Part shown: positions 8,307 through 23,299 of the stretch, one piece after another
Position numbering within the stretch: the first letter of the stretch is position 1
Layout: each line of letters starts with the position of its first letter
Program-made: the position numbers and the translations under genes
Assembly (NCBI GenBank): GCA_951406725.2
Contig: OX597841.1
Location: 9,176,001 to 9,240,000, forward strand
DNA from: Octopus vulgaris
Lineage: Eukaryota
Length of the DNA: 64,000 nt
Direction: 5' to 3'
The notes under the pieces: generated by a model
Database searches by the model: none
What the model was told of the DNA's origin: nothing
The model's input: the letters and a program-made list of their open reading frames with translations, nothing else

Positions 8307-8351
<45 letters not shown>

Positions 8352-8542
8352 TATAATAATAAATATTAGGGAATAAATCCAAATTTACAGGGAAAAATCA
8401 GATTTAGGATTGAATCCAATTTTATAGTAAAATATTATATAATATTAATTAGAGACAAAACCACTATTTTGCAAATCAAACAAAGAAAGACTTAATCCAA
8501 TACATAAAAAAATTTAATATAAATAAAATAAAATTAAATTCG

Positions 8543-8588
8543 CCACTACAATTGTTTCGTGTCTCTTCAAAGGACATTCATCAGGTGG
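8543..8588 (-). ncRNA. Minimal type I hammerhead ribozyme
   Basis: The minus strand reads CCAC-CUGAUGA-aUGUC..GACAc-GAA-ACAAUUGU-A-GUGG, with a palindromic stem III and a GUA cleavage triplet. Confidence 0.8.
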
Positions 8589-8871
8589 ATTTCAGATCTT
8601 CTATTCATAGGTTCCTGTACACAGACATGGAAAGACCTTTGCTGTATAAATTCTTTCAGGAATCCAATTTTATAGTAAAATATTATATAAGTCCAATCAA
8701 TCTGTCATTTTAATTACCTTTTTCTGATGATATCTGAAAAGAAAGAGCAATTTTAGCAAATCATATTAAGCAACACTCATAGTAAATCAAAAAACATAAA
8801 AATAAACAAGCTTTTGACAGTTTTATAGATATTTCAAAATTATGATGCTAGGTGTTTCCATTATCCAAACC

Positions 8872-8964
<93 letters not shown>

Positions 8965-9002
8965 ACTTAAAATAATTTAAAATTGAATAGAAGATCTGAA
9001 AT

Positions 9003-9048
9003 CCACCTGATGAATGTCCTTTGAAGACACACGAAACAATTGTAGTGG
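9003..9048 (+). ncRNA. Minimal type I hammerhead ribozyme (inverted paralogue of 8543-8588)
   Basis: ccac CTGATGA atgtcctttgaagacacac GAA ACAATTGT A gtgg. Confidence 0.75.
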
Positions 9049-9142
9049 CAAATTTAAGTTTATTTAAATTATATTAAATTTTTTTATGTATTGGATTAAG
9101 TCTTTCTTTGTTTGATTTGCAAAATAGTGGTTTTGTCTCTAA

Positions 9143-9184
<42 letters not shown>

Positions 9185-18935: not shown

Positions 18936-19011
18936 TGTGTGTTTGTGACAATCGGATGTGTCACTTTCTCCCGCCAATTTTCTCTTCACTTTATTTTACG
19001 TTTTCAAGGTA

Positions 19012-20147
19012 TCTCTCTCTCTATATATAAACGGCAGTTTATCTGTCTGTGTGTCTGTCAGGTTGTACCCTCACCCTGACCACGGCTTTCAACCGATTCT
19101 GATGAAACTTGACACACACATAGCCCATTGTCATAATTGAAAATTCCCCCAGTTCTGAAAAGAATCGATAAATTCGACATGGGGTCGAGAATCTAAGCTT
19201 TTTATATGCAACACATTTTCTGTTGTAGTTTTCGCAACTTGCAATCGATTTTCACCAAACTCGTGGTGAAGCTTAATGTTACCCTAAGAAACTCAATTCT
19301 GACGTTAGTTTTCCATGCAATACCTTACCATCAGAAAAAATCGATAAAATCATGCTATTTTGGGAAATCGCGTTCAAATTCAAGATGACATATTTTCGAA
19401 AATACCTTTCACAAATTGGCAGGAATTTCTTTTAAAATTCACAGCGAGCATCATGCCTGCTCCAAGGAGCTATATGGCCCTTTTTATTCCAATAGGATAC
19501 ATTATTACTGGAAAAAATCGGTTAATTAAATCATATGTGGCACACATAGCAAACCGATTTGTGTATTAAACACAAAACCACAGACTGTCTAGGGGACGCA
19601 ACTCGACCTTTTTAACTCTCTGAACACGTGGGGTAAGTATCTCAAAATGTATAAAAATGTACAAAAACGGCAAAAAACCTAGCAGCAATTTGAGTGACAA
19701 CAACGAAAAAGTCAAAAGTGACCAAACTGAACAAACGAATGGAAAAGGTTTTTTGGTGCACACGACAAAAGCGGTTTATAATAAACCAAGAGTTTGCAAG
19801 TAGCGTCCAAGGACCCTTAGGGTACATCAAAAATTTAAGGTAAAACGTTTGGGGTGGTAGTTATAAAGAAAGTTTAAACAAAAAAAGTATTCGAATAACT
19901 TGCAGCTGCAGCAGCTATTAGCAGAAGTGGCGGTGTTGGGGGTAAAGTCTCGAATGTAATTTCTTCCTAGTAGGAATTGGTTGGGTTGAATTATCGATAG
20001 CTGTTTGATAGTTATTTGGGAGTGAAGAGAAGACATTACAACCTACACATGCGCCTTAGTTCCCTAGAGGGAAAGGACTAGATTGGGATTAGTCATTGCC
20101 TACTAGGGGCTCTTACATACCCGGGCAACGCCGGGCTATGCTGCTAG
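19012..20147 (+). mobile_element. Non-autonomous Helitron
   Basis: 5' end A|TCTCTC..tatatataaa. 3' hairpin cccgggcaacgccggg (20120-20135) followed by CTAG|T. Confidence 0.75.
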
Positions 20148-20756
20148 TCCCACTATATTCATCATATATTTTCAAAAGTTGTTTTATTTTAAATGTCGTA
20201 ATTGTTGTTGTTTATCGTTTTTGTATTGTTGTTGTTGTTCTGCAGGAGCAGAGAATGTTATTTCAAACAGGTCAAACGATTCCATAAAGGTATTTCATTT
20301 GTTGGTAAAATAAAAGAAATTACATTTCATGACTTCAAATACGAGAATAATTAAAACAAACAAAACTAGGAGCAATTCATAACCACACCGAAAATAACTC
20401 GTATGACAAAGAAGACGGCAGTAGCACAACATCAAATAAAGAAAGCTTGCACAACCACCAAACAAATTGATACTAAAATTTGATAAACTAAAAAATCACA
20501 CGCGAAACACAAAATCTTTCCTTCGTTTATCAACATATAATATATAGTATTTCTTTTCCATTAACCGGTCATAGGATTCCTAATATTCTTGGAAACAACT
20601 TTTATCATAGGTCTGCTCTGGGCTTTAAAGAACAACAAAGAGATATAGCCGTAGCCTTTACCTGGTTTCTCAACCTGCTAGAGGTAGTAGGCAATTTTCT
20701 CTCAAATTACGGTTTTAAATTTTTCATTGGAAAGCTTTATTGTATATGTAGTTCTG

Positions 20757-20971
20757 GGTACTACTAGCGAACAGTGGTCCCGGTGCGCGCAGTTGCGCAT
20801 CCGTGCCAGCTAGTCGTGAGTAGTCGATCCTACAACGACTACCCAGCAAAGTAAATAAAACACAAAATAAATAATTTTTTTTACACAAAGTAAATAATTT
20901 TTAAAACAAAGTAAGGATTGACTAGTCATGACTAACTGGCGTGCACCGGGACCACTGTTCGCTAGTAGTAG
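20757..20971. mobile_element. MITE with ~30-bp TIRs (GGTAC terminus, possibly Merlin-like)
   Basis: TIRs tactactagcgaacagtggtcccggtgc and gcaccgggaccactgttcgctagtagta. A related end lies inverted at 35811-35948. Confidence 0.75.
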
Positions 20972-21239
20972 CGCAACCTTCAGTGAAACTATAGTATTGT
21001 GAGGTTACTTATTAGTTTTGCTTTCAATGCTCCAAATATAGTTGTCCATTGGGTTTCAGTCTGACAAGTTTGACAGCCAGAATTTTAAAAATAATAATAA
21101 TAATGAAATTGTTATATACAGTGCTCGTGTGCACTACAAAAAAAAAAGAAGTGGTGGCATTAGGTCTGCAGTTGGTGAAGTTTAGGAAGCATGGAAATTT
21201 GGAAGGATTGTAGTGTGTCAACAGCTGACAACTGATTTG

Positions 21240-22120
21240 GATAGTTTATGCCATGCTTCAGCAATTCTGAGTGTGAAAATATGTTTCCAAAAGTCATGGG
21301 TATTGTGTTGCTGAGTGATTTTGTAAGCTTACTCATGAGAGCTGGACTTGAATTTCAAAAAAGTGCCCAAGGTTGTTGGAGAGATGGTGGATAATCTTGT
21401 GGATATCTGCCCACCCAGTTGCCAGACGTCTAAACTTTAATATGTCCATGCTCAGGGAAGCAAGACGTTCAGGGTATGGTAGATACCTGACATCAGACAT
21501 CTGTTGGTTTGCAGGTTTCTGAACAGTTCCCAGGAGAATGATATGCTGAGCAAGATAGGATTTCCAGACTGGTGATGCAAACCCTGGACAGACCATAGTC
21601 GTATACAGTTTTAAACAGGCAGCTGGAGAGTAACGGACAAAGGTCTTACTGAGTGATGCTAAGACACCCTCAGACATCTTGACAATTTTAGGGATGTGGT
21701 TTGTCCAACGCAGATCGCTGTTTACAATAATACCCAGATCACGTTCACCAACAAACCTCTTAAGATGGGTTTTTCCTCCCAAAGTGCATGGCGGTGCACT
21801 TGTCCACAGAGTTGCCCGTCAGTAATCCATTGCTGCATTGCATTCAGGTCTAATTGCAGGTAAGCTCTCTCGCATATAGGATCTGTTCTTTTTATCTCAA
21901 GGTACAGCTTGATGTCATCTGCCTATTTCAATACTGTAACATTCTTCAAGTTGGCATCTATGTCATTAATATATGCAACAAACAGTTGATGTTAAATTAT
22001 TGTAAAGATGGTCTGATATCCACTCTTGGGTTATGCGGGCTTTGTAAGAAGGCACTGAGTATTGGTTAAACATGTATAGCATTCCACTGCATACTTTGTC
22101 CATCCAACACCAAGATGTAT
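21240..22120 (-). mobile_element. Degenerate CR1/L2-type LINE 3' fragment
   Basis: Translation ERDLGIIVNSDLRWTNHI..LYTTMV..SPVW..YPERLASL resembles the RT C-terminal region. Confidence 0.75.
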
Positions 22121-22655
22121 CCTGCAGTATTAATTCTAAGACCCTGTGGAAAGATGTGAGGTGATATGACATGACCTTCATTACTCACTACAACTAAAAA
22201 CTGTTGCTAGAAACTTAATGTGTATCACTCTGTGGACATCGGAAGAACCTGTCATTTCTCCTTGTTAAGACTTTCGGTCTTTTGACCTTAATCTAAGTTT
22301 TTCTTATCAGAGACCAACCAAAGCATGCCATGTTTGTAAGAAAATTTAACTGTGTTAAGTGAAACTCTACACCAATGGAACAGTTTTCCTCTGTCTTTGC
22401 AAAGAGGAATTGGCCTCTCCTTAGTACTTGTACCATTGAGTCTTCTCAAATTCCCTGACACTCTTTGTGCGTGTGTGTGTGTATATATATATACACACAC
22501 ACACACACATACATATGTGAGCTTATGCACACACACACACATATGTGAGCTCATGCACACACACACACATATATAAAACAAAGTTAACAATGGGAAGTGG
22601 TATATTATCTATTTTTATATCTATAAGATCCATAAAACAGAGAGATTAATAAATG

Positions 22656-22769
22656 AAACATCCGACATATGTTTCAACTGATGTACCAAGAGCATATCCA
22701 TTTATAATTATATAATTAAATGATTAATCAATACAATCTATTTAGTAAAACAGCTTCATCAGGGAGTTT
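22656..22769 (-). ncRNA. Type I hammerhead ribozyme with long stem-loop II
   Basis: The minus strand reads AAACUCC-CUGAUGA-AGCUG..~70 nt..CAGUU-GAA-ACAUAUGU-C-GGAuGUUU, with a canonical core and a GUC triplet. Confidence 0.8.
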
Positions 22770-23299
22770 AAAAGAAAGTTCCTAGTTACACCATTACTTT
22801 ATAACTACCTGGACTTACCTCCCAACTTTGATAATTATTTATATATACATATTGAGCAAGACACTTTATTTCATGGGGCTCCAGTTCACTCAGCTGGTAA
22901 AGGGGCCAACCTTGTCACACTGTGTCATGCTGAATCTCCCTGAGAAGTATGTGAAAGGGTATGCATGTCTATGGAGTACTCAGCCACTTGCGCATTATTC
23001 TCGTGAGCAAGCTGTTCTGTTGATCGGATCAACTGGAACCCTCGTCATCGTAAGCGATGGAGTTTCAGTTAAACAATAGTTTCAACAATTCCAAAGTCAC
23101 TTGAGATCTTGGACAACAGCGACAACCAAGCAATGATGAATGACATTTCTGGAGAAAGAAGAATGTTACTGTCCTCTATTTTGTACTTTAACACAAACAT
23201 TTTACACAATGTGAAGGTCAGTAAGTACATAGACCTCACATGAAAGTTGTATGATGTAATTTTGATAACATATTTAAAAGTACAGCTATGGTAACTGGA

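Follow-up and report, generated by a model that had tools for sequence, protein, structure and literature searches.

In a 64,000-nucleotide stretch of the Octopus vulgaris genome (assembly GCA_951406725.2, contig OX597841.1, positions 9,176,001 to 9,240,000 of the forward strand; hereafter the window), we analyzed five families of elements containing type I hammerhead ribozyme (HHR) sequences, labeled A (at window positions 8543 and 9003), B (10205), C (10651 and 220), D (10884 and 13474) and E (22656). The explanation that we consider the best, with a probability of about 0.87, is that four of these mini-elements are 5΄-truncated 3΄ ends of Penelope-like elements (PLEs) that end in (TA)n and belong to four separate families, one of them Neptune-type and three of the Hydra clade, and that the fifth (E), whose coding part was not found, is likely of the same kind. 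We directly observed the anatomy of the copies, their fixed ends, the links to open reading frames (ORFs) in A–D and an empty insertion site. The copies fit the PLE pattern in that the 3΄ end is fixed at (TA)n, the 5΄ ends are ragged, inverted partners occur and a tail is optional; truncation, inversion and tails are described as PLE hallmarks (PMC8557442). The families are new, the kind of element is known, and the general picture has already been published for the clade; the finding is thus mostly ordinary, apart from an odd letter in one ribozyme core.

We searched window positions 8001–23000 with a descriptor of the type I HHR (core CUGANGA...GAAA...UH and three stems) and found five motifs. 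In 30 local dinucleotide shuffles, the average was 0.4 motifs and the highest count was 2; with two stricter settings, the observed and shuffled counts were 4 versus 0.1 and 1 versus 0. The cores start at 8584, 10237, 10946, 13536 and 22762, all on the minus strand, and a looser descriptor also picked 9007 on the plus strand, where stem II contains a mismatch. Families A and E have canonical cores, D has C at position 4, B has U at position 6, and the window copies of C (at 10654 and near 223) are damaged and were missed by both descriptors. HHR-like sequence was present at all eight places named by the initial annotation, and the four palindromic stem III sequences that it listed were correct. 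An Rfam scan returned 115 matches at E ≤ 1, none of them to a hammerhead family and nearly all to microRNA models on microsatellites. The calculated energies of a duplex between the palindrome and a second copy were –6.4 (A), –1.7 (B), –7.4 (D) and –7.0 (E) kcal/mol, and for C –5.8 kcal/mol in the majority form and –1.5 kcal/mol in the window copy. The 3΄ regions of the five families share only short AT-rich matches (best E-value 0.002), in agreement with the earlier view that their flanks are unrelated. (TA)n adjoins A, B, C and D, as had been described; for E, the short end adjoins ATAT(GT)n and a tail piece ends at a short TA run. The five families lie within 14.3 kb, and the previously given span of about 23 kb is reached only when the copy at 220 is counted.

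As had been noted, D is the only family with an ORF within the window. We extended the copies of the other families in the genome (2.8 Gb in 227 contigs, one of which holds the window) and found that A and C run into Hydra-clade ORFs and B into Neptune-type ORFs. Hydra-clade proteins are characterized by RWK, DKT in place of DKG, CxCX5C and CxxC/CxH motifs (PMC8557442, section 11). For family A, the genome search gave 1287 first-look candidates, of which 40 were scored (here and below, candidates are not copy numbers). The 3΄ ends were short in 16/30 loci and carried a tail of ~90 nt in 14/30, and both forms run into TA-rich runs. At one locus (L232), we observed in order a pseudo-long terminal repeat (pLTR) with tail, a frameshifted ORF, a 2.9-kb untranslated region (UTR) and the same pLTR again, giving a unit of 5534 bp in which the tail is the leader preceding the ORF start. 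The encoded protein is 30–40% identical to that of D (36% over 241 aa) and contains KWK in place of RWK, DKT and CTCRDKSKC, that is, the Hydra-clade set. A Hydra-type endonuclease was located upstream on the right strand in 5/14 long A loci. Apparent tandem periods of 0.9–1.5 kb in A were rejected as such, being internal UTR repeats that lack an HHR. Both the A protein (L232:4700-6300) and the C protein (L288:4600-5500) have Asn-rich low-complexity inserts between reverse transcriptase (RT) and endonuclease.

In the window, family A is represented by a tailed 5΄-truncated 3΄ end at 8357–8607 (–), with the HHR at 8543–8588 and the tail at about 8357–8446, and by a short-end copy at 8962–9150 (+) that is flanked by two (TA)n tracts and has its HHR at 9003–9048. 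Opposite-strand HHR pairs were found at 16/65 A loci, 3/45 C loci, 1/33 B loci and 0/25 E loci, some of which overlap. Other, different PLE ORF remnants lie beside A and E stubs (L241:4998-6352, L274:2361-2940, L242:7723-8179, L245:3998-5980 and L285:7762-8022), showing further PLE lineages in the same TA-rich zones.

Family C (2099 first-look candidates, 40 scored) is a 5΄-truncated 3΄ end of an older Hydra-clade PLE, present at 10588–10769 (+) with a damaged long-stem-II HHR at 10650–10734, and at 157–338 (+) as a paralogue that arose by local segmental duplication. The HHR is evident at the family level only, as CUGAGGA followed by an insert of 57 nt in stem II and then by GAAA and ACGGUCGU, which is self-complementary; stem III is wobble-palindromic in the family alignment. 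In the copy at 10654, the sequence is ACGGUCAU and stem I is weakened; in the copy near 223, GAAA is replaced by GAGA. The 3΄ ends are less regular, with 8/17 at 38–44 nt and 3/17 without TA within 500 nt. In all seven long C loci, which were picked for their long 5΄ extension, a Hydra-type endonuclease remnant precedes the UTR in the same orientation, and in six of the seven the HHR follows 1.0–1.2 kb downstream. The linker and endonuclease motifs CNCRVKSHC, CxxC and CxH were read in L288 and others, and the RT part was not recovered from these loci.

Family D occupies 10791–13380 (–) as a full-length 2590-bp unit with the HHR at 10890–10952 (core CCGAAGA). Its intact ORF (11148–13274, –) encodes a 708-aa protein with RT and C-terminal GIY-YIG domains, in which we read MRWKA, SDKTK, CSCRNKELC, CGLC and CPH, with CxxC and CxH around E and N residues. 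The Pfam GIY-YIG match (residues 594–623) has an E-value of 0.013 and is under the curated cut-off. A single RT and C-terminal GIY-YIG ORF, a length below 3 kb, an HHR in the pLTR and insertion into (TA)n all agree with the Hydra clade. We had considered Naiad as an alternative assignment and rejected it on account of the C-terminal position of the endonuclease and the Hydra-clade motifs. A second, 5΄-truncated tandem unit (13381–15079, –; HHR 13480–13542) is the source of the upstream pLTR, and is followed by the start of an inverted D piece (15076–15136, +). A 100-N assembly gap (15137–15236) cuts the D array just past the inversion point and hides the other end of the insertion. The C-terminal 250 aa of D gave 27,058 candidates in the genome, and 150 of the 150 scored were 99–100% identical; by our count, about 28 of these sit in 717-aa open frames. 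The 3΄ ends of D run into (TA)n in 12/14 cases and into the next tandem unit in 2/14. Contigs of four runs that we presumed to be RNA covered D and joined 13379 to 10790; because the same junction is present in the DNA tandem, this proves neither transcription nor circles. To judge from its sequence, D belongs to the Hydra clade, resembles Hydra-1_Obim and is very young. As an intact, near-identical, multi-thousand-copy element with known empty sites, D is a ready substrate for studying TA targeting, tail formation and the role of the PLE hammerhead.

Family B appears in the window at 10108–10332 (–) as a 5΄-truncated 3΄ end of a Neptune-type PLE flanked by two (TA)n tracts, with the HHR at 10205–10242 and the core CUGUCGA-A. 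Among the 2428 first-look candidates, 40 were scored; TA was reached 104–106 nt past the stem III anchor in all 25 non-duplicated loci, so that the 3΄ end is fixed. In 3 of these 25 loci, the 5΄ extension exceeded 1.1 kb and reached a GIY-YIG domain preceded by a CX4CxxC linker. One locus (L247) contains a broken, near-complete ORF with DKG, the RT motifs, the CX4CxxC linker and GIY-YIG, and the motifs ADKGG and CSRPRCRTC of L247/L248 correspond to the Neptune-type DKG and CX2-5CxxC before a C-terminal GIY-YIG. The endonuclease matched Pfam GIY-YIG with an E-value of 0.012, again under the curated cut-off, and by eye the L247 ORF resembles the Neptune1_Ap row of a published alignment.

The odd core letter belongs to this family. 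In B-like copies, position 6 is U in 69/76 of those aligned, and position 7 takes all four bases. A change at position 6 normally cripples cleavage, and the rest of the core and the stems are conserved across subfamilies. U6 is a lead: it is predicted to weaken cutting, yet it is kept in very many copies and across B subfamilies. Low activity is described for a natural A6C hammerhead, and a viroid tolerates U4C, the change also present in D (PMC3088659). Literature listings gave no apparent natural A6U hammerhead, and the supplementary alignments of PMC4209133 may hold U6 variants. B and its kin form the commonest hammerhead class, with 8/28 matches in the random genomic sample described below and, by extrapolation, tens of thousands of copies. 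The natural U6 and C4 core variants could thus serve as test cases for whether such ribozymes must cut at all.

Family E gave 52 first-look candidates, 40 of which were scored, and its copies are about 75–85% alike, as in an old low-copy family. The window holds a short-end copy at 22575–22795 (–), in which the HHR (22661–22765) has about 80 nt inside stem II, and an inverted piece of the E tail at 22794–22845 (+); short and tailed forms of the end both occur in the family. A search for the E upstream pattern found six places, and two further stretches held short stubs only. Hydra-type ORF pieces near E matches (L245, L273 and L285) were considered as the E parent and rejected on orientation or missing linking homology. 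The tails of A, D and E have in common a GGA-UUAU-like-CC motif, located near the end of the A tail (8369–8380, –), in the D leader (13315–13325, –) and, with one change, in the E tail (22811–22822, +); C has a looser version outside the pattern. Counting both strands, 600 kb of sequence contains the pattern 51 times (about 0.006 per 150 nt); the motif is a lead only, because it was defined after the sequences had been seen. The end pattern of E and this motif fit a Hydra-clade PLE.

We compared the conservation of HHR core columns with that of flanking columns (non-CpG), leaving out the window-region paralogues; some places may have been counted twice. The core was more conserved in each of the four families measured, as the initial annotation would predict: 0.993 versus 0.918 in A (n = 82), 0.972 versus 0.866 in B (n = 80), 0.954 versus 0.907 in C (n = 64) and 0.926 versus 0.884 in E (n = 35). 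In 12 hand-picked A-like variants, stems I and II were nearly invariant, and the palindrome was altered on both sides in two. The 3΄ ends (B 25/25, D 12/14, both end forms of A, and less regularly C) are fixed at (TA)n, one of the points that the initial annotation had asked to have checked.

These features would be explained if the RT–GIY-YIG protein of each family nicks a TA microsatellite and primes reverse transcription there, a target-primed process taken from the PLE literature. Synthesis would begin either at a fixed position, 40–235 nt downstream from the HHR, or at a second one whose use adds the tail; in the element of PMC11167929, the tail lies between two RT start sites. It would mostly end early or change strand, leaving stubs of 170–280 bp and inverted pairs (PMC8557442). 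We propose that the HHR is retained in stubs because it adjoins the start of reverse transcription, and that the TA tracts of old insertions are hit again, so that stubs of unrelated families accumulate. Tandem precursor RNAs would be cut by the HHR in dimeric form, paired through the palindromic stem III and probably assisted by protein (PMC4209133, PMC11167929), and most single stubs would be silent. The apparent ribozyme mini-elements are accordingly reassigned to truncated PLE ends, and PLEs of several lineages compete for shared TA tracts.

Reuse of a tract was observed in the window. The (TA)n tract at 10770–10791 is joint to the 3΄ ends of C and D: the D 3΄ end lies inside the terminal (TA)n of C, and this site is empty of D in three of three paralogues, which directly shows one TA tract reused by two families and upholds the earlier idea of TA tracts as common landing pads. 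These paralogues, 94–98% alike, cover 5.6–10.8 kb of the window and were fetched from three other places on the same contig; in addition, window positions 3–405 repeat 10422–10791. Both D and the A(–) copy are absent from all three paralogues, and are therefore younger than the local duplication. The complex 5΄ junction of the A(–) copy (8604–8933) is templated and absent from the paralogues; it consists of an inverted copy of 9511–9564 (DNA 900 bp downstream), 31 bp of the element's own tail and a 245-bp repeat of the flank at 8124–8366.

Several observations weigh against the truncated-PLE explanation or parts of it. No PLE protein match lay in the right place at any E locus examined, and the longest traced 5΄ extension of E, about 1.4 kb, is non-coding and GT-rich. 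The clade calls rest on motifs and by-eye comparison with reference proteins and are accordingly provisional. All of the A, B and C ORFs found are broken, so that later copies may have used the enzyme of another family. Covariation, assessed in family A only, is weak; a single pair was compensated in 2/12 variants, and 20/500 shuffles reached the same level. Single-strand minimum free energy folding of monomers gave no full hammerhead. Dimeric or protein-assisted cleavage is the weakest step, because HHR mutants of the anole PLE still inserted in vitro; in that study (PMC11167929), the mutations had no effect on insertion and no RNA ends fell at the cut site, which makes the role of the HHR uncertain.

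Among the alternatives, it is possible, although we think it unlikely, that an intact enzyme of the Hydra clade, for example that of D, copies some of the families in trans. These families, foremost E but perhaps also sublineages of A and B that have lost their ORF, would then be non-autonomous derivatives of PLEs. Such derivatives have been published (PMC8557442; bioRxiv 10.64898/2026.07.22.740005), and the lack of an ORF at all E loci examined, the tail motif common to E, A and D, and the broken A, B and C ORFs in spite of many A and B stubs being 94–98% alike would all be consistent with trans-mobilization. However, with E copies so diverged and so few, the loss of rare full-length copies is expected; moreover, the 2.9-kb UTR of A indicates that a 1.4-kb walk may be too short, and no fixed 5΄ end was seen. 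A related and speculative proposal, which we would sooner expect to fail than to hold, is that the fixed-U6 hammerhead of B is a protein-rescued or non-cutting retrotransposition signal, and that the GGA-UUAU-CC tail hairpin of Hydra-type families is a docking signal for the second RT start that lets orphans such as E borrow a D-like enzyme. The possibility that the elements are metazoan non-LTR retrozymes, that is, short HHR repeats in tandem that excise themselves as RNA circles and then reinsert, draws on the type I HHRs with palindromic stem III, but we consider it extremely improbable. No same-strand HHR pair at 150–450 bp occurred in 65 A, 33 B, 45 C and 25 E loci, where the sole same-strand spacings were 5534 and 888 bp, and the ragged 5΄ ends run into ORFs, with A, B, C and D all being coding families. 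The retrozyme reading is thus already largely refuted for A–D. The initial annotation had envisaged retrozyme-like non-autonomous elements served by one autonomous PLE; this view of a non-autonomous community fails for four of the five families, since three of the four apparently ORF-less ones (A, B and C) run 5΄ into their own PLE ORFs, and may still apply to E. Its other suggestion, solo pLTRs, stands only in the sense of 5΄-truncated 3΄ ends.

We also asked whether this region might be exceptional, as a hot spot or a cluster of functional RNAs, instead of reflecting ordinary accumulation. Six descriptor matches inside 14.3 kb and four families inside 2.5 kb would be in keeping with such a cluster. 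However, we sampled 60 stretches of 10 kb at round-number positions (L329–L388; 600 kb) with the looser descriptor and found 28 HHR matches, compared with 2–4 in five shuffles. The net density is about 40 per Mb, or roughly 100,000 genome-wide, an extrapolation from 600 kb that is good to a factor of ~2. The five independent matches in the 64 kb of the window compare with about 2.7 expected (Poisson P about 0.14 by our own arithmetic). In addition, the A-B-C block is repeated on the same contig through segmental duplication and two window HHR copies are damaged, which makes a special cluster highly improbable. Because such HHRs occur genome-wide at similar density, the window cluster is unremarkable, and the microsatellites here do not constitute the special niche that had been suggested. 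In the random sample, (TA)4 lay within 450 nt downstream of 21/28 matches, compared with 38% of background positions. By eye, the matches comprise about ten distinct hammerhead families and about five that look false; the families include a sister of B with the core CYGACGA-A (five matches) and others with long stem II inserts.

Other features of the window include an array at 38986–42726, in which a 93-bp unit is repeated about 40 times (copies 98% alike) and both strands contain long open frames, and two long ORFs at 29912–33182 (+) of a LINE-like (long interspersed nuclear element) element, which contain endonuclease, RT and a cysteine-rich motif and which may be RTE-like. An element of about 220 bp with long terminal inverted repeats at 20757–20975 resembles, by eye, a miniature inverted-repeat transposable element. 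Several long frames at 52951–55579 (+), with poly-His and poly-Thr runs, look like host exon.

The closest known systems are Hydra-clade PLEs, which combine HHRs with (TA)n targets and include Hydra-1_Obim of Octopus bimaculoides (Craig et al. 2021, PMC8557442). Our literature search for hammerhead ribozyme and octopus found no survey of octopus HHRs by title or abstract. In a 2026 octopus annotation (PMC13282606), the number of Penelope-like families listed as recently active is 31, and the words ribozyme, hammerhead, Hydra and Neptune are all absent from the main text; as the PLE order is counted there, the earlier claim that these elements escape repeat annotation is weak. The Hydra clade resembles D in RWK, DKT, CxCX5C, the C-terminal GIY-YIG, a unit below 3 kb and the (TA)n target, and resembles the elements described here in the type I HHR, where stem II has an extra base on either side and stem III is palindromic; Penelope-3_HM likewise has ACUC-A-GAGU as stem III (PMC8557442 supplement). 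Over the stretches shown, D resembles Hydra-1_Obim by eye, whereas its HHR and UTR differ. In contrast to the clade in general, D is very young and abundant and has C at core position 4, the 5.5-kb unit of A is longer than typical, with its 2.9-kb UTR and Asn-rich inserts, and C and E hold 57–80 nt inside stem II. Neptune-type PLEs such as Neptune1_Ap (PMC8557442 supplement) resemble B in DKG, the RT motifs, the CX4CxxC linker before GIY-YIG and a microsatellite target, and also in their minimal HHR, where a base is added between 9 and 10.1 and G10.1 pairs with C11.1 (PMC4209133); the U at core position 6 sets B apart. According to PMC4209133, minimal HHRs in PLEs mostly occur singly and in association with truncated PLEs.

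Metazoan non-LTR retrozymes (Cervera and de la Pena 2020, PMC7229834; bioRxiv 10.64898/2026.07.22.740005) are alike in their type I HHR, dispersed monomers and link to PLE pLTRs. They are defined as 150–450 bp tandem repeats expressed as circles (PMC7229834), whereas the elements here lack such repeats and have ragged 5΄ ends that lead to ORFs. Poseidon PAc of Anolis carolinensis (Frangieh et al. 2024, PMC11167929) shares an AT-rich target and two alternative 3΄ ends; between these ends lies a tail, which serves as leader for the next unit. Compared with PAc, the tails here are about 90–110 nt (A and E) rather than 30–40 nt, the target is a TA microsatellite, and the HHR lies upstream of the ORF start instead of across it.

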